63,132 bases of DNA from IMG/VR virus record IMGVR_UViG_3300005095_000109, positions 1 to 63,132 of that record. One strand, given 5' to 3'. Below are positions 1 through 63,132 of this stretch, in pieces (position 1 is the first letter of the stretch; every line of letters starts with the position of its first letter). The notes under the pieces were generated by a model that had not been told where the DNA came from, made no database searches, and saw only the letters and a list, made by a program, of their open reading frames with translations. This DNA is from a virus (lineage: Duplodnaviria; Caudoviricetes). The position numbers and the translations under genes were made by a program.

Positions 1-91
1 CGCTCCTATATAACCATCTACCCACGCAGAACAAACACTATACAACTTGGCTATCACACCATACCACATAGCTCTCCTACAACCATCACAT
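1..91. repeat. Terminal direct repeat (copy 1), most likely circular assembly overlap
   Basis: 1-91 is identical to 63042-63132. Confidence 0.97.
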
Positions 92-561
92 AATCCACCA
101 TAATCAGACTCTACAAATAAACCACTAACCAACAAATCATCTACAAACCTAACCACATCACTAACAACACCACCACAATCACACGAACCTACACCAACAC
201 ACACACCAGAATTAATACAACCTCCCAACTCAACAACCCTACGCAAATTTACCCTCATCACACCACAACTCCATAAACACTCATACAAAACCTCCTTCCT
301 CAATAACCGCTCCAAACCTATAACCCTACCTACAAAACCACTCTGCCTCAAAACATCCCTCAACTCACTTAATCCTCCCAACATAACCCAGTTGTCTATA
401 CCACTGCCATCCTTCAACACACCAATAAACCTAACTCGCTCACTCACTAAACCACTCAAAATATCACCACCACTAACTAACTCAAAATCACCCAACCCAA
501 ATAACCCAGACCTGTAATCACCTCGCAATCCTTCCCAAATACTACTACTAACAACAAACAT
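1..561 (-). CDS. 5' part of a 240-aa hypothetical protein that spans the circular junction (ends at 62880)
   Basis: Hand translation from the ATG at 561 (MFVVSSSIWEGLRGDYRSG...) is open and in frame with the 62880..63110 ORF. A TAAGTTTG box (579-586) lies 17 nt upstream. Confidence 0.75.
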   Translation of the reverse strand, partial: MFVVSSSIWEGLRGDYRSGLFGLGDFELVSGGDILSGLVSERVRFIGVLKDGSGIDNWVMLGGLSELRDVLRQSGFVGRVIGLERLLRKEVLYECLWSCGVMRVNLRRVVELGGCINSGVCVGVGSCDCGGVVSDVVRFVDDLLVSGLFVESDYGGLCDGCRRAMWYGVIAKLYSVCSAWVDGYIGA

Positions 562-744
562 CTCACTACCATTTTACACAAACTTACAAAAATAATTAAA
601 AACACTCATTAAACTAAACACAATACACACCAGCCAGATGAATAAGAGATGTGCAAGCGAGCAGTTACGGCACATTTAAATTCCAAAAACACATTTGGCT
701 CCCCCGGGGCACTCTCCGCCACAGAAAAGCATTATGCTTTCCTG

Positions 745-778
745 AAAAAAAGACCCCCCACCCTTGCGGGCAGGGGGT
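745..778 (-). terminator. Intrinsic terminator after the 784..1074 gene
   Basis: Minus strand ACCCCCT-GCCC-GCAA-GGG-TGGGGGGT followed by C and T7. Confidence 0.7.
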
Positions 779-783
779 GCCCC

Positions 784-1074
784 TTACCGCGGCCACGGGT
801 GCTCCATGAGCACCCTGCCACGGATGGCCTCCACAATAGCGGAGGCCTTTTCGCCGCGGGGCGGGGCATACCCCGCGGCATACGCCGCCCTGCGGAGGGC
901 GGCATAAGCACTCCCGGCGCCGAAGCGCCGGGAAATCCGCCCACCCCGGTCTCCGACCAGGGTGAGCGTTATAACTCCGTCCGGGCCTTTCTCGGCCCGG
1001 ACGTCTTTGATTGCCTCTGCCCCGAAGGCCCAGCTATCGCTGGGCCCTGGGGCTCTTATTAGCTCGTCTATCAT
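784..1074 (-). CDS. Hypothetical early protein (96 aa, GC-rich)
   Basis: The shared motif lies 23 nt upstream and a terminator lies downstream. Confidence 0.7.
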   Translation of the reverse strand: MIDELIRAPGPSDSWAFGAEAIKDVRAEKGPDGVITLTLVGDRGGRISRRFGAGSAYAALRRAAYAAGYAPPRGEKASAIVEAIRGRVLMEHPWPR

Positions 1075-1093
1075 GGCTCTTTGATTTTACGTA

Positions 1094-1106
1094 TAGTAAC
1101 ATTTAA
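1094..1106 (-). promoter_or_regulatory. Early promoter-like motif variant TTAAATGTTACTA
   Basis: Aligns with the 3630-3642 copy over TTAAATGTT-NN-TATAC-N-TAAAATCA, with the same 23-nt distance to ATG. Confidence 0.65.
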
Positions 1107-1163
1107 TCTCTTTCTCCAGAGAGTACAGAGCAGCAGAGAGCAGTAAGACGGTCTGGCGGTGAG

Positions 1164-1234
1164 AAAAAAAAGAGAGAGCCACTTAGGCTCTGTGGCGGCC
1201 CGTGCCACCTCTACCACAGAGCCCTATGGCTCTC
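1164..1234 (-). terminator. Long terminator hairpin closing the putative ncRNA
   Basis: Stems 1174-1181/1227-1234 and 1186-1195/1214-1223, followed by U8 (A8 at 1164-1171 on +). Confidence 0.7.
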
Positions 1235-1515
1235 ATCCACTCCCGGCCTCCTGCTTACGTCAGTGCCCGGCAAGCCTGTGCGGCACGGCACCGGCGTTCC
1301 CTTTCGGGACCTTACGCCGGCTGCCTGGGACACAGGCAATCCCTCTTGTCCCGGACACTTCGGGGGTCGGCTGATTATAGCGGGGCCCACCCAGCGGATA
1401 ACCCCCTGGCACTTGCCGACCACACAGTGGCTACTTCGCGCAGGCTGTCCCCCAGGCGGACCCTCCACCTGCGCTTTTCACCACTGTGCTCCCCGCTCAC
1501 CAGAGAGCAAAATCA
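1164..1515 (-). ncRNA. Putative large structured non-coding RNA (~350 nt) of unrecognised family
   Basis: Has its own promoter motif (1520-1532), at least 8 nested helices, a GAAA tetraloop, a possible pseudoknot, and a terminal hairpin plus U8. No credible ORF. Confidence 0.7.
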
Positions 1516-1519
1516 CAGA

Positions 1520-1532
1520 TAAGAACATTTAA
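1520..1532 (-). promoter_or_regulatory. Early promoter-like motif TTAAATGTTCTTA
   Basis: Exact 13-mer that also occurs at 2055-2067 and 3630-3642. Confidence 0.65.
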
Positions 1533-1628
1533 AAAAAAGAGGCAGGCGGTAATCGGCTATCCGTCCCGGGCCGTGCCGAAACGCCCCCTGCGACCTTTCG
1601 CGCTGGGGACGCTGTCTCACCTGCCTCT
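1531..1628 (-). terminator. Branched terminator structure after the 1642..2028 gene
   Basis: A GAGGCAGG/CCTGCCTC closing stem with two inner hairpins, followed by U8. Confidence 0.55.
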
Positions 1629-1641
1629 CTGCCTGGGACCC

Positions 1642-2028
1642 TTAGACGCTTTCCCAGCGTCTTTTCTCTGGGTCCCAGACCCATTTCCGCGGCCCTTTGG
1701 CCAACCATTGCTGGTCTGCCTCTTTGGCCGCCACCCACTCATCGTGGGCGGCGACCACCTTGGCCGCGGTGTCCAGTAGCGCGCTGTGGCGCCGCTGGAC
1801 TTCCTCCCGGAACCCGGGCTCGCCGGGTTCCGGTTCGCGGTCCCTCATTCCGTATGCTATTTGGAATGGGACCGCTTTTATTACTCTTTCGAGTAGGCCT
1901 GCGGCCATCTGTTCTTTGGCTTGCAGGCCCACTTTCCACTCCCCCTCGTAGTAGTAGAGGGGGATTTCTAGGCCCTCCTCCAACTGGAGGAGGGCCTTTC
2001 CTAGTTCCTGCCACTCCAGTCTCTTCAT
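1642..2028 (-). CDS. Hypothetical early protein (128 aa)
   Basis: Protein-like composition, promoter motif upstream, terminator downstream. Confidence 0.8.
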   Translation of the reverse strand: MKRLEWQELGKALLQLEEGLEIPLYYYEGEWKVGLQAKEQMAAGLLERVIKAVPFQIAYGMRDREPEPGEPGFREEVQRRHSALLDTAAKVVAAHDEWVAAKEADQQWLAKGPRKWVWDPEKRRWESV

Positions 2029-2054
2029 CTTTCTCTTATTTTAAGGTTAACACC

Positions 2055-2067
2055 TAAGAACATTTAA
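2055..2067 (-). promoter_or_regulatory. Early promoter-like motif TTAAATGTTCTTA
   Basis: Exact 13-mer upstream of the ATG at 2028. Confidence 0.65.
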
Positions 2068-2615
2068 GAGAGAGTTAGAGGTAGAGTTAGAGATATAGAG
2101 ATGTTGAAGTGTAAAACTCTACTGCTCTACTACTTTATATGCTCTGCTACTCTACTACTTCATTTCTCTACTTGTCACTGTCGTGGTTCTCTAGTGTCTG
2201 CTCTGTGGCTCCAGTGTTCTTGTGTTTCTGTCTCCATTCGCCAGCCTGCTGTTATCTCTTGCCACTGCTACAGTGCTCTGCTACTGTCTCCAGAACTATG
2301 CTATCTGCTCTGTTGCTTTGCCATTGCTATGGCTCTGCTCTTCTCCGCTTCTACCCATCTCTCCATCTCCAGGTCTCTGTCTTCAAGAGCTAAGAGAAGT
2401 GGGACTGTCGGTCGGTCGGTCAGCCAGTTTCTTGTCTCTACTGCTCTATCACTGCGTGGCAACTAAGCAATGCAGTGCGTCTGTTGGTCGGTCTATGTTA
2501 CTACTGCCACTGCTTACGCTACTGCTCACACTGCAGATAGAGAGCAGTGGCACAGGCTGTCGGCATGAGCAGAACGAACGCAACGAACGCAACGCATCGC
2601 AACAGCAGAACTGCA

Positions 2616-2709
2616 ATCGCTGGCTCTCAAAGAGGGTGGGCGGGTGGGAATAAACGAAACGCGTTGAAACGCATCGCTCTGGCTCTGAAGAGGGTGGGTG
2701 GGTTGGGAA
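2616..2709 (+). repeat. Imperfect direct repeat; each unit ends in a canonical G-quadruplex motif
   Basis: TGGCTCT(C/G)AA(A)GA precedes GGGTGGGCGGGTGGG (2634-2648) and GGGTGGGTGGGTTGGG (2692-2707). Confidence 0.7.
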
Positions 2710-2714
2710 ACTGT

Positions 2715-2742
2715 AAAAAACGCAGCCCCATTGCGGGGCTGC
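2715..2742 (-). terminator. Intrinsic terminator downstream of the tRNA
   Basis: GCAGCCCC-GCAAT-GGGGCTGC followed by G and T6 on the minus strand. Confidence 0.8.
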
Positions 2743-2788
2743 TCACGGCGCTGGCAACATGTCACTGTCGCTCTGTTTAGGCGACGGT

Positions 2789-2865
2789 TGGTGGGCCCGG
2801 CAGGGCTTGAACCTGCGACCTGCGGATTATGAGTCCGCCGCTCTGACCTGCTGAGCTACGGGCCC
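2789..2865 (-). tRNA. tRNA with CAT anticodon, probably tRNA-Ile2 (lysidine type); elongator Met not excluded
   Basis: GGGCCCG acceptor stem, TAGCTCAG D-arm start, GCGGA-CTCATAA-TCCGC anticodon arm, GGTTCAAG T-loop and encoded CCA. C4:G69/C5:G68 pairs match Ile2 tRNAs. Confidence 0.93.
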
Positions 2866-2876
2866 AGATGGAGCCT

Positions 2877-3227
2877 CTACGGCTCCTCTCCGAGTAGTTC
2901 ATAGAATTCGCTGTCGTCGTCATCTTCTTCTGTGTTGTTCACTTCTCTGACGACGAACCCACGTAGCCCTCTGAACCGCTCCTTCAGTTCCTCTAAACTC
3001 AGTTCCCTACCGCGGTCCTCAGGCTTCAGTTCTAACTCTGGCGTCCACACCTCTTTACATCGTGCCGCTAAGTGTAGAGGCAGAACGCCTGCCACCACCT
3101 TCCCGTCAAGAACAGACGGGTCTGTGACGTGAGTAAGTAGTTCTGTCTTCTCGTCCGCCACCCCTAACTCCTTAAGAAGTTGCACCAGAGCAGGGTGGCG
3201 GGTGATAATGATTTCTACTCTCCTCAT
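2877..3227 (-). CDS. csx16: Csx16 (VVA1548)-like protein, candidate cyclic oligoadenylate ring nuclease
   Basis: Motifs ITRHPA, THV, VAGVLPLHLAA and RGRELSLEEL follow the Csx16 pattern in order and spacing. Acidic C-terminal tail. Confidence 0.72.
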   Translation of the reverse strand: MRRVEIIITRHPALVQLLKELGVADEKTELLTHVTDPSVLDGKVVAGVLPLHLAARCKEVWTPELELKPEDRGRELSLEELKERFRGLRGFVVREVNNTEEDDDDSEFYELLGEEP

Positions 3228-3610
3228 TGCTCTACGATTTTGCTTTTTATTTCTTCAAGAACTGCGTCTTGCTCTTCTGCGTCGGCGGCAGACTCCTCAA
3301 TCTCCTGAGCCGTTATGTCGTAGTACATCTTGCTCGGACTCAGAAGACGCAAGTTCTCCAACCAGTTCTCGCCATAACGTGGCGGCTGGTTGGGCGGGGT
3401 TGTTAGGGCAATCAGCTGCTCCAGAATGTTTTCCAGAACAGCCTGCGAGCCGCGGTGCATAATCTTGCAACGCTTGCTCTGTTGGCCGCGCTGCAGGTAT
3501 ATTACTATTCTGTCTGCGTTCACAACCACCGACTTTATGAGATCGCCACGCGCCAGACGTGGCGTTAGTCGGTGGCCCCTCTTTCCGTTTGTCTTCTCTT
3601 GTGCTGCCAT
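3224..3610 (-). CDS. Hypothetical early protein (128 aa)
   Basis: First gene after the promoter motif, with an ATGA overlap onto the Csx16-like gene. Confidence 0.8.
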   Translation of the reverse strand: MAAQEKTNGKRGHRLTPRLARGDLIKSVVVNADRIVIYLQRGQQSKRCKIMHRGSQAVLENILEQLIALTTPPNQPPRYGENWLENLRLLSPSKMYYDITAQEIEESAADAEEQDAVLEEIKSKIVEQ

Positions 3611-3629
3611 TGTTTGATGATTTTATGTA

Positions 3630-3642
3630 TAAGAACATTTAA
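3630..3642 (-). promoter_or_regulatory. Early promoter-like motif TTAAATGTTCTTA
   Basis: Exact 13-mer upstream of the ATG at 3610. Confidence 0.65.
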
Positions 3643-3654
3643 TTAATTAAAGTG

Positions 3655-3700
3655 AAACTGAAAGTGTAGGCAGAGCCTGCCCTGTGAGCGGACAGGCTCT
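3655..3700 (-). terminator. Hairpin ending the 8383-3716 operon
   Basis: AGAGCCTG/CAGGCTCT stem (3672-3700) with a weak U-tract. Confidence 0.5.
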
Positions 3701-3715
3701 CCTTAAGTTTTCTTT

Positions 3716-4087
3716 TCACGTTGTCAGTTGTTCAAGGTATTCTATACTTCTTTCTTTTGCGAAATTGATATCTTTATCTGATATAGTATTTAGTATATAT
3801 TCTATATCTTTTTCTGACAGAATTCTTATTTCTACTGTTATATTGTTTTCTTTTATTTGTACGTATGTTTCTTTGATTGATGCTATTTCTGATAGTGTTT
3901 CTGCTATTATTTTTCTTGTTTTAGGTTCTTTTTGTTCTGTTTCTATGAATGGTTCGTAGTCATATACTTCTTGATTATTGTATTCATATAGATTGTATGT
4001 TTGTGTTTCTATTATTTCTATTATTTGTTCTGTTGATTTGATTGGTATTTGTTTTTCTTTTGTGTGTATTATTATTTGTACTTTCAT
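3716..4087 (-). CDS. Hypothetical protein (123 aa)
   Basis: Translationally coupled ORF in the minus-strand operon. Confidence 0.8.
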   Translation of the reverse strand: MKVQIIIHTKEKQIPIKSTEQIIEIIETQTYNLYEYNNQEVYDYEPFIETEQKEPKTRKIIAETLSEIASIKETYVQIKENNITVEIRILSEKDIEYILNTISDKDINFAKERSIEYLEQLTT

Positions 4088-39753: not shown

Positions 39754-42700
39754 TTAGCGAATTCTATATGAAACAGACCCAACTACTTTTGTTCTTTTCC
39801 TTTTATTTGCCTGTTCATATTTCCTCATTAGAGATAGTGCTTGGTTAGGCACTATTGGCGTTACCGTTAGCGAGAACGCTTTAAGGTAGTCTCGTGTCAA
39901 CTGCATAGGTGTTGACTCCCCTTTGGCAAAGTCAATTGTTCTATATGTAGAGTTTGCTATAGCCTGCATAAAGTTGAAGCCTATTGGTAGCCTTATGCCA
40001 TATGTTGGCAGGTCAAGGATTTTATTAACTGTTGCTGGCAGATAGTAAGATGCTGGGTATGCTACTAATCCAAGTGAGTTGTTTATAAATGAAGCGGCTG
40101 CTGTCTTTGCTATACGTTCCTGTTCCTTTTCTTTTGTCTTTCTTTTCTCGCCAGTAAGCAGTTCTTTGAGGAAATCAATAGCAGCAAGGAAAAGCGATGT
40201 TAGGATTATAGCAAGCCCGTAGTATGACAAACGCTTTGTATTCCTATACTTAAGGTAATCTCTTAAACCGAGCACGAAGTTTGAGAAGATAGGCCAAGAT
40301 GGCGTTGTAAACATTGTAAATAGCCTAATCCACGAGTAATAAATTTCTGGTCTGAAGGTTGTCGTGTACATTGGTTGTGTGCTCCTGACTGCGTTATAAG
40401 TGTTTTCAGATACGTATTTAGCCCATTCTCTCGTGCCTTTCTTTAACCCCATTTTTTGTGCCTTCTCTGCATATCTATTCCACGTTTCTATAATCATTTC
40501 TCTATCTGCATATGCAATCATTGACATTGTTGATTCCATACTTGTTGCATCAATAATTTTCTGTGCTACTTTTTTGCCGAACATTTTTGTTAACAATTTT
40601 CCTGCTTCAATAGAGACAGATGTTTTAGTCCCGAACAAGTCTTCAACAGTGTAGTATGACAATAGTGGTGTTGATATAAGCCTTGCGGCAATAAGTCCAG
40701 TAGTATCATACTCAATTATTTCCCTTATTCTTGGGTCGTTCAACTCTCTCATTATAGACTCTGGCTTTGACTTGATTGCTCTTGCCTGTTCAACTGGTGC
40801 CCCTTTGATTATCCTTCCGACAAGAGTTATTGCCCTACCTATTGATTTAAGGTCCCCAGTAGCCGCTCCGAGGGTTACAAGACCAGCCGCCTGCTTAATA
40901 GCAGAGAATATGTTCATAAAGAATATAAATGCCACTTCTATTTTCATTTGTCTATCAAGGAGGCGTTGCCACTTTGCCTCATTTAATTGAGGGGCGTAAT
41001 ACCTATTTACGAAACTCTTTATCTTCTGGACAAGGAACCTATACATTTCGCTTCCGTATCTATCGCCGTAGGAAGTTACTGTTTTTGCAATCTTCTTATA
41101 GTTCATCACTGGGAATGTATATCCATAAACTGTTGAGGCAAGCCTTTGTGAAAGTGTCAGGACTGTATAGGCGTCAGTGATTGTTACAGCCTCGTTTTTA
41201 CGTTTATGCATATCAATGTATGGGTTATCAAATATGTTGGCAACTCCCTTTATCTGGACTGAAAGAGGGGTGCCAATGCCAGATACTCTTGGGACAAACA
41301 GACCATCTGCTTTATTCTCATAGCCGAAAGCCTTTTTAACTATTGAGTTAGTTTCGTTTTTCAGTATTCTAAATGCCTGTTCAAAAGCCTGTGCCTCTTC
41401 TTTGAAATGTGCATTGACAATACTATTAATTGCTTTTTCAAATGACTTGAAAGCACTTTCATCTCCGAACCATATGCTTCTTTTCTTAATGTCATCTCTA
41501 TCAGAACCATAGATAATACCATGTTCTTTAATATCTTCTCTTGCCTTGTTATCTTTTAGATACAGGTATACTGTTATAATCTCTGCCGGAGTTAACTCAT
41601 GGACGTCTTCAAACTCTTCAATTTCTTCCTGCCCTTTATTCCAAACTTTTTTAACATTTGTAAATTTCACTTTCATCTTAGGCACGTCCTTTCTGCTAAC
41701 TGTTACATACTCGCTTGACCTAATATGCTGTGAACCATCTGCCAACTTTTTGTTCTTCAGAGTTGGTGTTATAAGTTTCTGCACCCGCATAGTCAGTTTA
41801 CTTGCCATCATGTCGCCATGTTCAAAAGCGAGATAAAGACCTTTATACAGTGCGTTATCTGTCCCGCCAGCAATCAAGTTAAAGAATGCGTGTGGTTGCA
41901 GGAATGAAGACAACTTAAACGTCTTAAACATTTTAACAACCAATGGGTCTGAGGCAGCAGTTGATATTTGCGTTACCATCTCGTTATCAAGATAGTCATT
42001 ATATGTAGATGTGATAGCCCTTCCATCAGCTGCTTGGAATGTGTTTTTGGAAGACAAAACTCTGTTTATCAAAGCCAGAGCTCTTACTGCAACTATAACA
42101 TCGCTTAACGCCAAGTCCCTAAGGACAATTTCATTGCCATTCTGCAATTTTAGACTTGCGACTGGGCTCTTGCCGTCATATTCTATTTCAAGTGTTCCAT
42201 TAAGTATTTGCTGTATTGTTTCATCAGAAAGCCTGCCATCTGGGTTATCACCAAAGAGCAGATTAAAAACACTCATTGGATTAGCATCGTCATATGCGGC
42301 TCCTTGTAAGTTAGTTAGACCAGATAATGAGTTATCAAGGAAGTTGCCAAAGCCTTTTAGCCCAAGTATAGCCTTACTAATCTGATGTTCTTTATCATCG
42401 CCTATTATATCGTCAAGTTGTCTAAATATCTGTAACATTGCTTGTTTACGTGCTGGGATGTCAAGGGACATAATACCTGAATCCACTTCATTTGAAATGA
42501 AAAATCCGAACGATAGATAATCAAGTATTTCGTCTGCTGCTGTTATTATGTCATCTGCGCTTTTAATTTCAGTGTAATGCTGTTCCACCCCCTCTGTATC
42601 AGCCACTATGCCGGGGTTAATCTCATCAAAATGCTGCTCAAACAGGTTGTCTGGTTGGTGCTGTGCTTGCTGCTTTATTTCTTGCTGTGCTGGCTGCGTT

Positions 42701-45700
42701 TGTAGTTGTGGTTGCTTAATGCCCTGCTTTTCAAGTATTTGCCTTGCTTCACCAGTCGGCGTTAACCTGCGCAGGTCTGCTTCATAAAATAGTTTAGCAA
42801 GTCTCTCATAACCTATAGAACTTTTTATCAGCCACTTAAGCCTTGTCCAGAACTTGTATATAACCTTTAGCACACCCTTCAACTCATTAATCTTGCGTTC
42901 ATCTTGTAGCCTTCTGACGTAAGAGACAGCAAGCATCTCAGCAAGCCGTTCCTCTCCGTATTTGTCTATTAGCCTTTTAACGAGTGGGTCTTCCCTGAAC
43001 ATATCTATATAGACGTGTGCGAATTCGTGAGGGGCGGTTGTTATTCTCCCATCAACCAACGACCACGCAACTAAATAACTAAGTTCTCTTTTTTGCATAT
43101 ATCCAAGTCTCTTGCCTAACTTTTCATCATATATTCTAATTTCAACAAATGGGTATTTAGCCATTAAGTCTTTAACTATTGCCTTGTATAGTTCTTCATT
43201 TTCTATAATTCTAACCATACTTTCACGTTCAATCATATAATCGGCATCTTCTATTTGGCTTTTGATTTCTGCTTCATTTATTGATACTACTTCAATGCTC
43301 TCTTCACTTAGTTTAACCAGTCGTGGCACAACACCTTTCTTGGCAAGATTAATGATTGATTCTGTTATCTTATCTATATCGCCTTGTGCACCAAGGACAT
43401 CTTTCAAAATCTTCTTAATCTGTTCCATATCCTTTTTAGCAACTGCTTCTTTTAATGTGTTGTTTATAGTTTCAATATCCTGTGTTTCGCTTGCTCTCTT
43501 GAGCAACTTTATAGTTGTTTTCCGCCCGCTTGATAACGCATTTGCTAATGCTTCTGCTATTGATGCCCTCTTGCTTGTCGGGATATAGAAGCCGAATACA
43601 TCCTTATCATTTACTATTCCTATTTTATCAAACTTGGTATTAAGAATTAAGTTATCATCAATAGTATTTGACGCCTGCAATTTCTGAGACAAAGAGATTG
43701 CAGACTTAATGGATTCAAGCAGGTTAGGGTTGCTAACTGCTATTCTACTTAATACATTAATAGTCCTTGCAGAAAGGTCATTTATAACCTTATCTATATC
43801 AAGCCCATTTAAGTTAACTTCAGTTACTGATATATTAATTCCAGGTGGTATGTATATCTTAGCTTGTGCTTTACCTCCAATTTCATTTATCCTGACAGCT
43901 ACATCAACTGTTTGTAGGCTATTTATTAAATCTTTTATCTTATCGGCAACTTCTCTGTTAACATTTAGCGATTGTAGATGTGTTATTAGCATACTGCTAA
44001 AGTCAACTCCGCTGACTATAACTTCTTGTTTTGGTATGCCGTCAAAGTATGGTGTTATTTTAACGAGACTATTATCTGCTGGCTCAGCAAGTCCAGGCAT
44101 ATATGCAAGTTCATGGTATCGTGTTGTTATTAGTTTTTGTTTTGATTGTCTATCTTCAACTACCTTATCATATTTGATCTTCAGTATTACATAGTTATTA
44201 GGTGTCTGAGGCGGTATTGCAGATAAAGCGTCTGCCAGGTCAGGAGGCAGATTAGTTAATACCTTGCTTAGCTCCTGTTGCGTTGGCTTTTCAACAGTCA
44301 ATTTCCTATACTCATATGCATTGTGCTTTCTAACCCTTATGTTAAACTCATTTAATCCTGCAAGCAGGATTATGTTCTCCCTTGTGTTATATGGATGTAA
44401 TGGGTTTATGAGCATATACTTACTGCCTGCAATATCAAACAATATAAACCTTTCTTTCTCTAAATCATACTTAACCATTCCGTGCACTACGCCCTCAGGG
44501 CGTGATTTCCTTAATATGTTTGTTGCAAGAGATTCTCTTAAAGCCTGTAATTTGTCTTCCTTGCTTATACCTGCTATTGATTCTGTTATTTGCATTAGTT
44601 CCTGCTCTGGTAATAATGACATAACTGGCGATGCGGCAAACACGCCGTTCTTAGCTGTCATAACATATGCTATTGGCTTCAGGTATATAGATGATAGGTC
44701 GGGAGATGCGTTTATAAGTTTCTTTATTGCGAGCCATTCGTGAGGTGATACATTAGTAAATGTCAAGTCAACACCATTCTTTTTGAATGGCGACTTTATT
44801 CTTTTCTTTTCAAGCCATCCTATTATGTTCTTCACCTGTGAAGGCCCGATAAAATGCTCACCATTAATTGAGTATGCTGATAATAGCCGTGCTATGTGGA
44901 ATGGCATCCTGCCGTTTAGTTTAGCGTTGTATAGGTCTATATTCATTTTCATCCACAGGCGTTCGCTTGGTGCCTCGCCATACATAGCCTTATCAACAAG
45001 GTATGCGCTGTATAATTCAAGTGCAGGACGTATCTCTGTTTCGTATCCTTTGAATATGCTGTATTCTCTGAATGGGAGGAACACAGTAGATAGCGGTTCG
45101 TAGATTTTTGAGTATATGTATCCAGCAAAGTCTGCGTATTCAGATTGTATTGCGAATTCTGTTTTTTCTACGCCTGGATAAGCCTTATGTTCATCAAGTG
45201 CTATCCTTACACGAATCATCTCCTCAATAGATGATGGTATTGACCTGTATATGCCGAGGATTGGGGCAACATACGATATTGCTTCCTGCCCAGCTGCCAG
45301 ATAGTCCATTTTTTCAAGGCGATATTCAAGGGACATATCTCCATAGAATGCTTCTACTGCCTGCGCGTATAAGTGTGCTGGCATTGAGAAGTAATCATAT
45401 CCATTTTTAACTGCATATTTTTCAACAAAGTCATACATATTTATTATTTCAGATATTACTTCAGATATTTCGTTTCCGTGCAGGATAGCCCCTGCTATGT
45501 AGTTAAGTGATGCTGAGTTAATGAGCATTCTGGATATTGCGAAGTTGTTATTGTTGTCGTCCAGTGCGGCCTGCACGAATATATCAAGGCTTTTGACTAC
45601 GCCTTCTTTCTGCAACAGTTCCTGTATGTTTATCGTCTTCCTGCGTCGCACTATTATCTCTTCTTCTTCTGTTTCCTGTGTTGTGTATCCTGTATATGAC

Positions 45701-48700
45701 ATTTTATCGACAACGCTTATTAACTTTCTCAGGACGACAAGCGTGCTTATAGCATCGTTAGCAGAGCGAGTTCGTGCTGAAATCTTTAGCCTTGCAGACC
45801 TATTTTCAAGAGACAGTTCTTTATCTAAATCAGCTTTTCCGCTTTTGCTTAATGCACTTAATAACCTATCGTATATTTCTTTGTAATAGCCTTCATCGTC
45901 AATTATCTTCTTAACTGTTTCCGGTGTGAACCTCACAACTTCTTGCAGGTCGTTTGGAAGTGTTATTTTGTATTTCTTAGCAAGCATAGCCAGTTCAACT
46001 ACATCAGCAAGATTTGACATCCCAGATGGGTCAAGTTTATAGTCTCTAATTGCTTCATCAACAGAGTTATATACTTGCTCTGCTGTTTTGACCAATTTGG
46101 ATAGTGCTTTTGCTATTTTCAGTGATTGCATTGACCACCCCCATTCAGGCGTGTTTACATTTTTTATCTCTTTTTGTATCTTTAGCCCTTTTAGTTTTAG
46201 ATATTGTGTTATTAACTCATTAATATCTTTTTCTGTTTTAACATTATCAATGTTATTCATTATATAGTCTATCATATCATTGACAAGAGAAACATAGTCT
46301 CCTTCATGAGTTTTACTTGCTATTATTTTAAAAAATGTTTGACCTGTTATTTCTTTCATTCCCCTTAAGTCCTCATATATGAAAGGTGCTATTGCTTTTA
46401 TGCCTTTTGACACTATGTAGTCCATTATAATTTTCCTCATACCTCCATCTTCAGGGAACACAAATAGGGCATCTCCATCGTAGTCGGCATCAGCCCTGAC
46501 CCTGTCCCTTACTCCACGGATAATGATATTTGCGTGCAGGCGTCTCCTTGCTTTATTAGAGTAGTATTCTCCAGTATGCCCTATTACCTTTGAGAATGCT
46601 ATATTTGGTGCCTGAGTAGGGACACGGATAGTCATTATTTTTTCGCCCCGCTTAGCTACCATAGGAGACACGATAGCCTTACCATCAATAAGCAATTCAC
46701 CAGTTGAAGGAGACCCCATATCTGGGACCTCATATAAGTGTGCTCCGGGCAGTTCTGCACGTGCCGCCCGCTTATGGAACATCTTAGCAAGCGTTGGGAT
46801 TATGATGGAAGCATATTCTATGTTATGCATAACTGCTTCTGTCATTGCCTTCGCCTCGTCTATGTCTTCTTCCGCTTTGCTTTTTATTGCTTTATCTATT
46901 TTGTCCTGAAGCAGTTTGAACATTTTAGACAGTGATTCAGAAACATTTGTTTTCCAAGCGGCATCGGCACCTTGTATAGCACCAACTATCGCTTCCTTCA
47001 TAGTTCGCAGAAAACCTATATCAGAGTTGTCCCAGTTGTTGAGCGTCGCCTCAATCAGTTCCTTATATGCATTCCACAGTTCTTTCACCCTTTCTGGGTC
47101 CTGAGCCACAGATTTAATTGTTGTATAAGCCATTAGCGGGAACAACGATGAGGACTGTTCGTCAACTGGTTTGTTGGTATTAATGACTATGCCGAATGTT
47201 GATGAGTCAACATATGGCTCTTCCTCCTTTATGTATTCTGCTATATCTGTTGCTATATCCTTAACTGCTTTCTTTACTTTGAGTTTTGCTCTTTTTGCTA
47301 CTTGTTGACCATTCACCTCTTCTGTTTCTATTGCTTCAATATCAAATATGTCAAAGACTTGTATCGGACCGCCCCCCTTTGTTAAATGCCCTTTCATAGC
47401 AGAACTTGCTATAAACACAACTGCTGTGTTATCATCTATATGCCCCCTGCGTTTAAGTTCATCAAGTATTGCTTGCAGTCGTGATTCAACATATGACCTC
47501 CCACCTTCTATTTTAATGCCGCCCATTTTGCCATACAGAGGAGCCAGCGCATACCTGCCGTCTTTCTTTTTGTATGGTGCTAACCCATAGAGCATTGGCT
47601 TGATAAATGGGCTTGTATCATCAATACTTGCAGTATCGTTAATCAAGTCATACATTGCGTCGTTGTAGAAGCAGAAGCCGTCAAGCAGTTCTGTTTCTGC
47701 TACCTCATTACCTATGCGTAGTTTTATCTTCGGATCTTTGAATGGTATGATAAGCAATTTCTTCCCGGGAGCCAATCGTCTAATGGTTGGCGTCTTTGCA
47801 CCCTTAGTTATTTTCTGTTTCTTGCCGTGGGAGAGCATATCAGTAAACACAAGGTCTCCTGATGTAAGGACATCATATACGAAAGATGCCATAACTATAT
47901 CAGTTGCTATTTTCTTAAATGATTGCTTACCTATCTTGAACACATTAGCCTTTTTATCATATTGTATGTCATATTTGTTTTTCAGAAAACTTATCTGGCT
48001 CTGTGTAACGTCGTCAGGTGCCTTCACTTCTATGTATTCAATATCTGCTTCCTTCAGGAGTGATTCATATTCTTTTACAAGTTCATCCCTATACTTAGCA
48101 AGTCTTCCCTTAATGTCTTTATTATCAAGACCAACAGACTCTGCGATAAAATCCAAGTCGCTGTATTTATCAAAAACTTTAGCATCTTGATAAGTAGGCA
48201 TTTTAACAGCGTAAACTTCCCTGCTATCGCCGTGTGGCGGGCTAATGAAATAGAAGTATTTGCCCGCACTTTCAATTATTCCGTTTATATGCATCTTCAA
48301 CTGTGCTATTAGCTTATTCTTGTATGGCGCAGTAGCGAACTGTGTTGCCTTTTCGCCTATATATACGCTTGTGAACAAGCTAACCATATCACCGCCTTCT
48401 TGTTCTATCAATCTGTATATAAGTGTGTTCTTATACAACTCAGTTAGTTTGTTGATGTAGTCTTGTGCAGAGTTGAATTTTGCTATGCTTTGTATGAAGT
48501 ATTTCGCATTTGAGAATATTCGGATAACATTATTGACAAAACTTAGTGCATTGCCCTTTTCAGACCCCACATTGAAAGTCGTCTTGTTGTAGTAACCTTC
48601 TTTGATTAATTCCCCTATTATCTTCTTGTAGTAGTATGATACGCTTCTTATTTCCCTTACTTGTTTTTTCTTATCGTCTTTGTAAATGTTAAAGACAAGC

Positions 48701-51700
48701 GGGTCGCCTATTTTATCATTATAGAGAAGTATCTTTTCCTCACCTGTAAACTTCAAGTTAGTTTTGAACCCGACATTTGTTATATATCCCGCCTTTTTGT
48801 TTAGTGTATTAGTTACTATCTGCTCAATATCTATATTCTTGAGATTTATCTGCCTTCCTTTGCCCAGTATATAGTTCCTGCTGGCTGGAATTTCAAACGC
48901 TATAGCCAACATAGCCAGCATATCGATTATACTGTCATACAACTCTTTGTTTCCAGTTACAGGGTTTACCATCCCTGCTGGGGGCATGGGGACCCCGAAG
49001 GCGACAGAAAATTCGTGCAATGCCTTTTCAAGTTCATAATCTATCTGTTGTTGTATGTATTCGTTGTTTAAGTATTCTTTGTTGTCAATTGCTTTCTTTA
49101 AGTTCTGAAGTGCAGTAAGCAGTCCTCTTGCCGCTGTGTATAGTTCAGACGACTGCCAAGCTCCTTTTATTGCTTTGTTTATTTCTGTAACAAGGGTTGT
49201 TTCGCTATTGAATGTTTTACCTTTTAATAAGTGTATAGCCCGTGGCAACATAGATGCGAATACTGCGTTTAGTATAGCACCTGATGGTGATTTGATTTGA
49301 GCCGGGATATTTACTAATCCCTCTGTGTCCCTTCTTGATGGCTCTATGTGTGCATTAGTTGTTCTGACGGGTAGAAGTATTGATGTGCTGGCTTTGTTGT
49401 AGAACAGGCTTATTGCTCTATCTCTATATTTATTTGGCAATCCTTCAAGCGCTTGAAGGATTATTTGTAATGAGTGTCTTGCATCGCTTGGTATGTCAAG
49501 CGAATAAGCGTATTCCCTAAGGTTATCAATGAAGTTTTCCTTAGTGGATTCTCTGGCTACCTTGTTCAGTGCAGTTATTACATTTTCCTTGTGGTGTGTT
49601 GCTATCTCAACTGTCCCATCCTTGTTAACGACTATATATTCTGGCGGTATTGCAAACGCTATGATAGTCCTATATACCGATGTATCTTTATCTCGTATGT
49701 ATCGTGAGAATACCTCAAGGCTTTCCTGCATTGCTGTTTCTAAATCGCTCAGTTCAATCTCATCTATTTCTGTTTGAGAATCTTCGTCTGTCTTGGATAT
49801 CCTAAGCACTTTTGCTGTGAATACCCTCTTAGCAATGTTTTTCTGCCTATCGGATAAGTTGCTACCTTCAAGGACCTTATTGAATATATCAAGTAGTCTT
49901 TTTGTTGAGATAGTTTTAGATGCTTTGCTTTTGAGAGTTGCGGATTCTAAGGCAGCGATGATTACTGTTTGTGCTATTGATATTGATATTTTCTCTTTTT
50001 CTGCATCTTCAGAGGATTTAACGTTAACGACTGTTGCATTTTCATTTCTGTATTTATCAGCAAGTTCTTTGAATACTTTGCCTATGTCAGTTGTTTCGTC
50101 AAATGGTGGCTTGTATTTGCTTGAATATACTATGTATACTCCGCCGTCAAGCAGTGCTTCTCGCAGTGCCTCCTTTGGGTTCTCATTAATATCACCTTTG
50201 AATACGAACGGTGTTTTGCCGTTTAGCGTATTGATTATTTGTTTAAGTTCTTCATCGCTTTTACCTTCTAAAAACTTGTTTATTGCTTGCTTGAGGCGTA
50301 TGCGTCCGCTGGGTAGTTTAGATTCAATTAGTGCTTTTATTAGTCGTTCTTTGTTTGGAGCAAATGTTTCGTCTAGCTTATCTACCTCATCAAGTATTGG
50401 GCTCTTAACTTCCCTTAAATCATCTGCTTTTACTTCTTCTGTGTGTTTAATAATTAATCTCTCTTCTTTTTTCTGTCTAACATTTTGAGTTGGTTGTGAT
50501 GTCTGTTTTTTTTCATCCTTTCGTTCTTGTGGTGCTGCTGGGTGGCTCTGTTTTTGTTCTGCTTCCCTTTGCTTTTTTTGTTGCTGTTGAGGTTGAGCAG
50601 GTTGTTGTTGAGGCGTGGCTTGTTGAGTTTGTTGTTTCTGTTGTGTATTTTGTGGTTTTATAAGTTCTTTAATTGCTTTTACAAGTATTTCTTTTGTCTT
50701 TTGTGTTATCCCTGGAACTTTACTTTCTCTTGGCCCTGCTACGTTTATGACTTCTGGGTCGTGCTCAACGATGAACTCTTTTATCTTCTGTGCATTTGTT
50801 TCTATATCTTGGTTTATATCAACAAGCAGATATGGTCTATATGGTTTTTCAGGTGGGTTTTGTAATGGTTCTCCAAACAAGCCATCCTGTGCAAGTCTTA
50901 TAGTTTGTTTAGTTCCTGGCGTCAAGTTATTAGGGTCATAGAATATTATGACTACGTCTGCATTATCTATATTCCTTTTGGTTCTGCTTCTATAATCTCT
51001 TGTTCTATCCTCTTCAAGCCCAAATTGCTTCAGGAACCCTACATGTTCCATTCCTTCTTTTTGCCTGCCTATATCTAACAGTTCATTTCTATACCCTTTT
51101 GGTGCTATACCTCCTGTTTCAAGGCGTAGTTCTTTTGCTGCAAGTAATGCCCCGAAGTCTGCTCCTGTTTGACCGCCTGATATTATCTTTTTGAGTCTAA
51201 TTTTTTTGGTCTGTTGTGGTTGTTGTTGCGGTTGTTGTATTTCCCCCTGTTCAGGTTGTTCAGGCTGTTCCGTTTCTTGTTCTTTCTCTTGTTTCTGTTG
51301 TTGCTGTGTCTGTTTAGGTTGTTGTGTTTGTGCTTGCTGTTGCTGTGGAGTTATGCCATTTAAGTATTGTTCAATTTTAGTATCATCTGTTTGGCTTATG
51401 TATGTTATAACGTCGTCAGGGATAATGTATTTATCAAGCAGTCTTAGTGCATATCTCTTGGCGTCAAGTGTTTGCTCGCCTGCACTTGCAAACAGTTCTT
51501 CAAGTCTATTTCTTAGTTTTTGCTTTGCTTGTTTTGATATTGCTTTTTGCTCATTCCATATTTGGTCTCTAATGATTAGCGATACGTCTTCAAGGAATTG
51601 CTTAGCTTCCTGTGGCAGTTTAGCGAATATATCCTGTTTCTTTTTCTGGCTTAGTGGTAGCATTAAGCCGTAGTTAGGCATTTGTTCTGCCAGTGCTTTA

Positions 51701-62289: not shown

Positions 62290-62690
62290 GTCCCACCTGT
62301 CCCACCTAACGTCCCAAACCTTGGGACGGACCCCGCACCTGTAACTGGTTGAAAACCAGACAGTTATAAATCAAAATTTGGTCTTGTCCCATCAGAAAAA
62401 ATTATCCTGGGACGCACTTAACTGGCTGTGAGTGAGTATGTTATCACAAGTTAATGTGTGAATGTCCCAGCTGAATGCTATTTATTTATATATATATACT
62501 ACCCCCCTCTCTATTTTTTACCTTTTCACTTTTTATAAAAAAGATGGGACAGATATAGTAAAAGTATAGGAAACTCACTGAAACACACTTAGTTATAGCG
62601 TCCCACCCATACATGGGACACACAACATACACAAAAACAAAAAATAACTGAAACACACACAGTTATGCCACGTCCCATACCAAATGGGAC
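62290..62690. repeat. GTCCCA iteron-like cluster, candidate replication origin
   Basis: 7 forward and 5 reverse copies, four AACT...GTTA elements and a central AT-rich tract. Non-coding. Confidence 0.7.
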
Positions 62691-62879
62691 AAAACTCAAA
62701 ACTAAGGACACACACATAAGTTTACTTAACTCAAACACAAAATACACACACAAACCCAACTGTACAACAATATAACAACTATTTACTTGACAAAGTGTAA
62801 AAACTAAACAAAAACTCTAACACAACTAAACAAAAACACAACCAGATAAACACACATACACAACACAAATCACTCAATA

Positions 62880-63132
62880 CTACCCATACATCCCAAACAA
62901 ACCATTAAACTCACCTACATACCACTCAGGTAACCACAACAACTCACCACTATACACAACACTACCCAAATCTCTCTCCACAAAACTTACACCTATATCA
63001 ACACCATCTAAACTACCAACAACCACCAACTTAGACTTCAACGCTCCTATATAACCATCTACCCACGCAGAACAAACACTATACAACTTGGCTATCACAC
63101 CATACCACATAGCTCTCCTACAACCATCACAT
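62880..63132 (-). CDS. 3' part of the junction-spanning 240-aa protein
   Basis: In frame with 1..561 through the terminal overlap. Confidence 0.75.
   Translation of the reverse strand, partial: CDGCRRAMWYGVIAKLYSVCSAWVDGYIGALKSKLVVVGSLDGVDIGVSFVERDLGSVVYSGELLWLPEWYVGEFNGLFGMYG
63042..63132. repeat. Terminal direct repeat (copy 2)
   Basis: Identical to 1-91. Confidence 0.97.

Follow-up and report, generated by a model that had tools for sequence, protein, structure and literature searches.

A candidate structured non-coding RNA gene within the GC-rich island of a distant crAss-like phage genome

The element described here occupies positions 1164 to 1523 on the minus strand of the IMG/VR virus record IMGVR_UViG_3300005095_000109, the whole of which (63,132 bases) was analyzed and is referred to as the window. 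It is well bounded and is probably a gene for a non-coding RNA. An upstream motif shared with neighboring units precedes it, an intrinsic terminator ends it, its computed stability exceeds that expected by chance, and no coding signal is present in it. The favored explanation, to which we assign a probability of about 0.5, is that it specifies an accessory, stable, non-coding, protein-binding RNA of a distant crAss-like phage; this claim is drawn from a single sequence. An initial annotation, made by a model from the DNA letters, had described the same stretch as an unrecognized structured RNA. The core of that description (non-coding, structured, and of no known family) withstood tests of three-base periodicity, of guanine-plus-cytosine (GC) content by codon position, and of AlphaFold, HMMER, and Rfam.

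The boundaries were located by pattern matching. The 63 kb contain four exact copies of the motif TTAAATGTT (at 1098, 1524, 2059, and 3634); each is on the minus strand, and none falls outside of 1098-3642. The copies at 1524, 2059, and 3634 are identical in the 13-mer form TTAAATGTTCTTA. Every copy is situated downstream of the terminator of the preceding unit, and that at 1524-1532 adjoins the T8 tail (1531-1538) that ends the terminator of the unit upstream. Such units, each with a motif and a terminator, follow one another in tandem along the minus strand of 700-3650; they are labeled A to D by increasing coordinate (Table 1), and the present element is unit B. The terminal hairpin and run of eight U residues that had been proposed for it were found on the minus strand (hairpin 1191-1175, T8 1171-1164). 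Both features expected of a stand-alone small-RNA gene, an upstream promoter and a GC-rich hairpin followed by a U-tract, were thus present as pattern matches. Transcription would start just past TTAAATGTTCTTA, to judge from the neighboring units, and would stop at the long hairpin and U8 (1234-1164), and the presumed product is an RNA of about 345 nt. The 5' end should lie within 23 nt past the motif, because the start codons of the neighboring units lie there.

The RNA read from the minus strand (1515-1164, 352 nt) had a minimum free energy (MFE) of -182.7 kcal/mol, compared to -150.6 ± 5.2 kcal/mol for 100 dinucleotide shuffles (z = -6.2), none of which was equally stable. It contained 17 complementary 7-mer pairs, versus 5.4 ± 3.0 in shuffles. 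All seven helices named in the initial annotation proved fully complementary on the minus strand, with a standard pair at each position, and the UCCC-GAAA-GGGA hairpin was located at 1298-1309, as had been claimed. The pair probabilities of the six nested helices were 0.84-1.0 at 37° C (0.59 for the outermost pair of one of them), except for helix 1262-1270/1351-1359, and approximately 0.8-1.0 at 55-70° C. The excepted helix had probabilities of 0.31-0.35 at 37° C and 0.79-0.93 at 55-70° C, and it is present in the MFE structure at 70° C. A pseudoknot between 1379-1385 and 1491-1497 fared worse: its arms are complementary, but a 7-nt complement occurred in 97.6% of 500 shuffles (with a mean of 5.4 such complements per shuffle), and both arms are also occupied by nested helices. 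It was therefore set aside as a chance-level pairing.

According to the predicted fold, the RNA would form five stable domains. In order, these are the 5' hairpin; the long hairpin, whose internal loop resembles the sarcin-ricin motif; another hairpin domain; the branched domain with its GAAA cap; and the 3' hairpin, which contains a loop close to a tetraloop receptor. The stability was computed, and the specific fold is a prediction. The GUG of a 41-residue frame (1500-1498) falls in the loop of the 5' hairpin. In the long hairpin, for which the pair probabilities were 0.59-1.0 at 37° C and 0.95-1.0 at 55-70° C, an internal loop places UGAAAA (1480-1475) opposite GAAGUAG (1437-1431), such that AGUA faces GAA with sarcin-ricin polarity; AGUA/GAA is given as the sarcin-ricin consensus in PMC1865062. 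The branched domain holds helices 1274-1280/1331-1337 and 1291-1297/1314-1320 in addition to the UCCC-GAAA-GGGA hairpin, the GAAA of which is at 1305-1302. An internal loop in the 3' hairpin, CCUAAG (1187-1182) opposite UAGGG, is one position removed from CCUAAG/UAUGG, the 11-nt receptor of the GAAA tetraloop; in a study of that receptor, the position at which the two differ is described as flipped out and free of contacts (10.1101/2024.03.11.584472). In the present RNA the deviating residue is a G, which the MFE structure pairs with the receptor's U. A GAAA tetraloop-receptor contact may exist within the RNA, and the near-consensus receptor and the sarcin-ricin-like loop are treated here as leads, not as tests.

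Several tests bore on coding. Three-base periodicity was absent from 1164-1500 (chi-square p = 0.92), from the 41-residue frame (p = 0.92), from an 85-residue frame (p = 0.94), and from 1211-1374 (p = 0.95); the corresponding values for neighboring open reading frames (ORFs) were 2.7e-9 (ORF128), 8e-6 (a Csx16-family gene), 7e-4 (ORF 3224..3610), and 0.026 (ORF96). The GC content at the first, second, and third codon positions was flat (0.66/0.64/0.67), as it was in each of five frames tested, and in ORF128 it was 0.70/0.40/0.71. Frames of 41-106 residues are open in all six phases at 65% GC, and ORF length is uninformative for that reason. The 85-residue frame (1211..1468) had been named in advance as one whose conservation would speak for a protein instead. 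Its AlphaFold single-sequence model had a predicted local distance difference test (pLDDT) score of 42.1 and contained no helix or strand; ORF128, which served only as a comparator, had a pLDDT of 62 with clear helices and strands. A phmmer search of the frame against 1.84 billion representatives returned two matches (E = 2e-5 and 9e-5, each made of 4-5 stretches), both to tandem-repeat proteins that are unrelated to one another, and these were read as spurious. No credible homolog of the frame was found among those representatives, and the neighboring ORFs were also without homologs. Coding by the frame is thus unsupported, and the unit is most likely non-coding.

Membership in a known RNA family was assessed with the 4227 covariance models of Rfam 15, among them those of the small ribozymes, GOLLD, ROOL, and HEARO, applied to the whole window at the gathering score and to 600-2900 and 1150-1535 at E ≤ 10. 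At the gathering score, the only match in the window was a methionine transfer RNA (tRNA-Met) at 2792-2865, a result that upholds the proposal that the RNA belongs to no known family. At E ≤ 10, the sole matches in the unit were to generic hairpin (miRNA-precursor) models, whose cut-offs are 60-98 bits, and to Vault models; the scores of 15-26 bits were far below the cut-offs, which over both kinds ranged from 34 to 98. ARAGORN detected no tRNA or transfer-messenger RNA in the unit. RNase P, signal recognition particle RNA, 6S RNA, and group I and II introns were rejected as identities, having no Rfam support.

That the unit is accessory is suggested by a nearer relative, which was encountered at low depth in one DNA run. 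A fraction of 0.04 of the words was present, and contigs lay over 26 of the 30 bins of 1-4000; bins 1207-1340 and 1877-2278 were uncovered, and nothing was drawn from the uncovered parts. One contig of this relative (depth 7.55) joins position 1185 to 1530, skipping 344 bases that comprise the body of the RNA together with most of the motif. Because it was seen in a metagenome at 80% likeness, this joint may be less reliable, and other letters may lie within it. Among the differences listed, those in the flanks of this contig amount to one substitution plus two insertions, all at 1145-1164; none is listed for 1530-1598. At face value, a close relative has had the RNA body deleted or replaced, which would fit an accessory cassette and would argue against an essential element such as an origin. 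The Csx16-family gene of the relative differs mainly by third-position changes (20 of the 24 differences listed in 3021-3210). The same or other contigs of this relative also skip 68 bases (1598-1667) and 72 bases (2413-2486), and the island as a whole appears to differ from that of the near relative by several block changes, beyond the RNA alone.

More distant relatives were sought in many ways. A blastn search of 600-3700 against GenBank phages recovered the tRNA only, and 1100-1560 had no match among plasmids. Scans of IMG/VR anchored on the primase and ORF128 proteins, a scan of JGI metagenomes anchored on ORF 3224..3610, and a scan of GTDB genomes with the Csx16-family protein yielded none; by word-indexed search, the primase and ORF128 had no relatives. 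Exact 34-nt flank patterns were found in 0 metagenome contigs and 0 viral contigs, and a 22-nt pattern of the tetraloop hairpin in 0 viral contigs and 0 genome contigs. A descriptor of the sarcin-ricin-like hairpin matched 103 stretches of viral contigs; among 104 pattern matches in those listed (80 stretches), none had the required stems, and the best match formed 8 of 13 pairs. The capsid protein had 64 relatives, itself included, at 31-57% identity, and the best 80 of 536 capsid-encoding IMG/VR stretches were kept (33-53% identity). Island DNA had no match better than E = 0.63 in five records of capsid relatives. Three complete relatives of about 70 kb, taken from those 80 (about 50% capsid identity), have 30-31% GC; their 300-nt windows never exceed 42% GC, a motif cluster is absent, and a survey of their ORF-free gaps yielded no lead. 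Because these relatives have neither the GC-rich island nor the motif cluster, the island appears to be a lineage-specific acquisition or invention.

The neighborhood offers a clue to function. The Csx16-family gene (2877-3227, minus strand) matched the Pfam family Cas_VVA1548 at E = 1.5e-14. Csx16 is described as a ring nuclease specific for cyclic tetra-adenylate in type III CRISPR (clustered regularly interspaced short palindromic repeats) systems (10.1101/2024.09.24.614671). The phage-borne protein is likely an anti-CRISPR. With this gene in it, the island looks like an anti-defense or take-over region, of which the RNA would be an accessory product. We infer that it would act by binding protein, as a decoy, sponge, or scaffold for an RNA-binding protein of the host or phage, and not as a messenger RNA (mRNA). 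This proposal is drawn from the absent coding signal, from the unit being accessory and variable, from its anti-defense neighbor, and from a precedent in the crAss-like phage phi14:2. As a bounded, stable orphan RNA in such an island, it would provide a handy entry to the function of early non-coding RNAs in crAss-like phages, which are among the most abundant phages known.

The phi14:2 RNAs are the closest published parallel in a literature search limited to crAss-like non-coding RNAs. Drobysheva et al. (10.1101/2020.03.07.982082) report two abundant early long non-coding RNAs from the intergenic regions g004-g005 and g005-g006, the functions of which "remain to be determined". Like those regions, the present unit lacks an ORF and belongs to the non-structural part of a crAss-like genome. 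However, no sequence similarity was detected (blastn, word size 7, NC_021806 1-9000; best match 17 nt, E = 0.5), and the phi14:2 regions are AT-rich (20-35% GC) and longer. The present unit differs also in its exact shared motif and its own terminator, and the phi14:2 RNAs were seen to be expressed, whereas the transcript of this unit is a predicted one.

Other known systems resemble the unit in part. GOLLD and ROOL are large structured RNAs found in phages and near tRNA genes. Like them, the present RNA is large, folds in a complex way, and is encoded by a phage, and a tRNA gene lies no more than 1.3 kb away, but GOLLD and ROOL are longer than about 345 nt, and neither their models nor those of other large RNAs in Rfam matched even at E ≤ 10. 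The sponges CsrB and RsmZ and the 6S RNA sequester proteins; they, too, are stand-alone genes with a promoter, an intrinsic terminator, and a multi-hairpin fold, and protein binding is proposed here as well. In contrast to them, the unit has no repeated loop motif and no Rfam match to 6S or Csr/Rsm models. The number of GGA triplets in the RNA, nine, is by estimate about that expected from composition. RNA anti-CRISPRs, which are short, solitary mimics of repeats, are likewise phage non-coding RNAs, and an anti-defense setting with a Csx16-type ring nuclease is shared. The known ones are short repeat-like units, however, and no CRISPR-DR model of Rfam matched inside 1164-1523 at E ≤ 10; the unit may nevertheless mimic a repeat of its host.

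Several results weigh against a dedicated protein-binding RNA. The flanking units with codon periodicity are far more structured than unit B. The plus strand also folds significantly (z = -5.3). A G-U pair had been offered as evidence of polarity; the counts of G-U pairs were 15 (minus) and 3 (plus), but shuffles gave 19 and 7, and the argument was rejected, because base composition alone yields the same excess. What supports the minus strand is consequently the motif, the U-tract, and the tetraloops. Repeats of the sponge type were rejected: the top counts of 5-, 6-, and 7-mers were 4, 3, and 2, versus mean shuffle maxima of 4.6, 2.9, and 2.2. A search of the phage genome for an antisense target returned nothing better than a 12-nt match (E about 1). 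No homolog of the RNA was recovered in any search made (phages, plasmids, IMG/VR, JGI, GTDB), which leaves this one sequence as the support for its helices. The matches to three-dimensional motifs were picked by eye, post hoc. A GTG lies downstream of the motif at precisely the 23-nt spacing of the ATGs of two neighboring genes. Finally, the motif had been called an early promoter, but the early transcripts of phi14:2 share no common upstream motif (10.1101/2020.03.07.982082), and that label is for this reason an inference.

Table 1. Coordinates of the RNA unit, its predicted parts, and the tandem units around it
Feature	Position	Strand	Basis or remark
Promoter-like motif TTAAATGTT	1524..1532	-	Pattern match; promoter function presumed
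Predicted non-coding transcript, ~340-360 nt	1164..1523	-	Fold z, flat periodicity, without Rfam family
5' hairpin GCUCUCUG-GUGAG-CGGGGAGC	1488..1508	-	MFE at 37° C
Long hairpin: outer helix 1423-1430/1481-1488, inner helix 1438-1444/1468-1474	1423..1488	-	Complementarity, pair probability
Hairpin domain closed by GGUCGGC/GCCGACC, inner GGGG...CCCC helix, G-U-rich tip	1365..1421	-	Complementarity, MFE; pair probability 0.84-0.99 (37° C)
Branched domain closed by AGUGUCCGG/CCGGGCACU	1262..1359	-	Complementarity, pair probability
Long 3' hairpin, ~21 pairs	1174..1234	-	MFE; tip-proximal part 1191-1175 is the terminator stem
Terminator stem hairpin	1191-1175	-	Terminator scan
U8 tail of terminator	1164..1171	-	T8 run at 1171-1164
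41-aa frame, GTG start 23 nt past motif	1375..1500	-	Rival: small protein or gene relic
85-aa frame, longest minus-strand frame	1211..1468	-	Named earlier as possible refuter
Unit A	motif 1098; ORF96 1074..784; terminator 778-753	-	
Unit B (structured RNA unit)	motif 1524 to U8 at 1164	-	
Unit C	motif 2059; ORF128 2028..1642; long hairpin + U8 running straight into next motif	-	
Unit D	motif 3634; ORF 3610..3224; Csx16 gene 3227..2877; tRNA-Met 2865..2789; terminator 2742-2722	-	

The alternative that best survives is that strong folding is a generic property of the island, which would have been selected or mutated toward hairpin-dense, GC-rich early transcripts; unit B would then be a decayed or filler cassette that is transcribed but merely stable, and the benefit could lie in resisting RNases, RNA-guided defense, or heat. 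Perfect GC-rich hairpins of 8-14 bp, with loops such as UUCG and GCAA, follow one another along almost the whole of units A (700-1097) and C (1533-2058). The z scores of these two units were -11.7 and -12.2 versus dinucleotide shuffles and -10.9 and -10.0 versus synonymous-codon shuffles, by which the Csx16-family gene had a score of -1.8 and an AT-rich control gene -0.2. The RNA structure of units A and C thus far exceeds what their protein sequences require. In a coarse scan of the minus strand (263 windows, 10 mononucleotide shuffles each), 8 of the 11 windows with z ≤ -3.5 fell in 721-3720. Because the coding-like flanks fold more strongly than unit B, strong folding is a property of the island and no proof of a dedicated RNA function. 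The GTG at the canonical 23-nt spacing and the missing or replaced body in the near relative also fit a decayed or filler cassette. Opposed to this are the lack, in any sub-segment (p = 0.92-0.95), of the leftover periodicity that a recently decayed gene should show, and the intact motif and terminator around the unit. The architecture is also unlike that of the neighbors, with multi-helix junctions and internal loops resembling three-dimensional motifs in unit B versus strings of perfect hairpins in the flanking units. Unit B is set apart by this different architecture and by its absent coding signal. The claim of a special RNA therefore held with regard to coding but not with regard to structure, since the unit is one of three hairpin-rich ones, two of which are coding-like. 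On balance, generic structure is an unlikely explanation, albeit a serious competitor to the protein-binding RNA.

Composition bears on the same question. The GC content is 40% overall, 60-70% over 700-2000, and 50-58% over 2200-3600. In thermophiles with AT-rich genomes, GC-rich islands mark RNA genes, and the sharp peak at the structured RNA is reminiscent of these; the adjoining tRNA-Met (anticodon CAT, 2789-2865, minus strand, with an encoded CCA; Rfam and ARAGORN) has 68% GC in this 40% GC phage. However, the peak here also spans ORFs with codon periodicity, so GC content alone is no marker of an RNA gene. Paralogy among the four units was considered and rejected; no blastn or tblastx match fell below E = 0.002, and all were short.

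A more specific version of the protein-binding proposal, which we regard as quite doubtful, places the RNA in counter-defense: an early, compact RNA class of about 345 nt would neutralize a host RNA-binding immune protein. The GAAA tetraloop-receptor contact and the sarcin-ricin-like loop would hold the RNA together. It would be made along with the hyper-structured mRNAs of the flanking units (z about -12), a transcript whose coding strand has 3% C, and the Csx16 mRNA, and jointly these might blunt a host type III CRISPR system or another RNA-sensing or RNA-cutting defense. The context is perhaps more surprising than the RNA, with three tandem over-structured units next to a ring nuclease and a C-depleted gene (3% C), and the whole island may merit as much attention as the RNA itself. 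Should the excess structure reflect selection on early transcripts to evade RNA-targeting or RNA-degrading immunity, it would constitute a new layer of phage counter-defense.

The C-depleted gene is an observation in its own right. Across the circular junction (62560-63041 and 1-600), the plus strand contains only 3-6% G, and hence the minus, coding strand of a 240-residue ORF is nearly free of C. This ORF runs on the minus strand from 561 down through 1 to 62880, with a one-mismatch copy of the motif upstream at 671-679. Its strand-specific base depletion is extreme.

That unit B encodes a small protein, through the 41-residue frame from the GTG at 1500 or another short frame, with the remainder being a structured 3' untranslated region, is improbable, though a small peptide might still be made. 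It had been stated that the motif copy at 1524 is the only exact one not followed by an ORF; this holds with the reservation that the GTG 23 nt downstream opens this frame. The corresponding ATGs lie 23 nt past the copies at 3634 and 1098 and 30 nt past that at 2059, and the GUG, being in a hairpin loop, could be accessible. Against a protein, 1375-1500 has no periodicity (the short segment affording low power), and the start-associated motif TAAAAT/TAAAT, present in the three neighboring units, is missing before the GTG. Furthermore, the leader is rich in U and takes part in predicted pairs, whereas the leaders of the neighbors are A-rich, and open frames of this length arise in all six phases at this GC content. 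In the genome at large, TAAAAT/TAAAT is found 6-22 nt upstream of 20 of 40 ORF starts, versus 2.9% of random positions, and no Shine-Dalgarno-like motif before ORF starts was evident by eye. The motif could be a translational signal or a -10-like box of near-leaderless mRNAs.

A new large ribozyme or compact catalytic RNA, held by a GAAA tetraloop-receptor contact, is very improbable. It would account for the GAAA-capped hairpin and for the CCUAAG/UAGGG loop, which deviates from the receptor solely at the flipped-out, non-contacting position, as well as for the sarcin-ricin-like loop and the multi-domain fold, and the length is typical of such RNAs. Yet the MFE structure has the deviating G paired to the U of the receptor, the motifs were identified post hoc, and no ribozyme family of Rfam was matched; no conserved core can be pointed to in this single sequence, and the near relative appears to do without the RNA or to carry something else in its place.

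The RNA II of ColE1 primes replication, and its transcript runs into the origin without release. That the unit acts likewise as an origin-linked primer, or as a DNA hairpin element, is most improbable. In its favor are a G-rich transcript (38% G), nearby iteron-like repeats of ACTGCTCT, and, at a distance of 2-3 kb through the circular junction, a primase gene and an HU-like gene. Against it, a strong hairpin and U8 terminator closes the unit and would free the RNA, on which ground an RNA II-type primer was rejected; an origin should persist in a relative with nearly identical flanks, and the RNA-type GAAA tetraloop is readable only on the transcribed strand. The ACTGCTCT repeat occurs six times in the genome, on both strands, with four copies within 1137-2548. 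The interval 2070-2720 is ORF-poor, with structure at z of about 0 and many short degenerate repeats, including CTCTACTGCTCT-like units; two G-run repeats are located in it, at 2620-2650 and 2679-2709. This interval could be an origin or a protein-binding array.

The assignment of the source genome was made from its proteins and its ends. The terminal 91 bases are identical at both ends of the record, which indicates a circle of 63,041 bp or a terminally redundant genome. The portal protein is 24-28% identical to Crassvirales portals, and PHROG families were matched by the portal (E = 4e-73) and capsid (E = 8e-62) proteins. Together with a 4,727-residue ORF that has a SLOG domain of the circularly permuted YpsA type, these matches assign the genome to a distant crAss-like phage. 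That ORF (39754-53937, minus strand) carries the domain at residues 918-1087 (E = 6e-28) and presumably corresponds to the giant virion protein known from crAss-like phages; given the anti-defense setting, the presence in it of a SLOG domain, which binds nucleotides, is worth attention. The fraction of the residues I, V, Y, W, R, E, and L (IVYWREL) in a proteome tracks growth temperature, and the value for this phage, 0.411, hints at a moderately thermophilic host.

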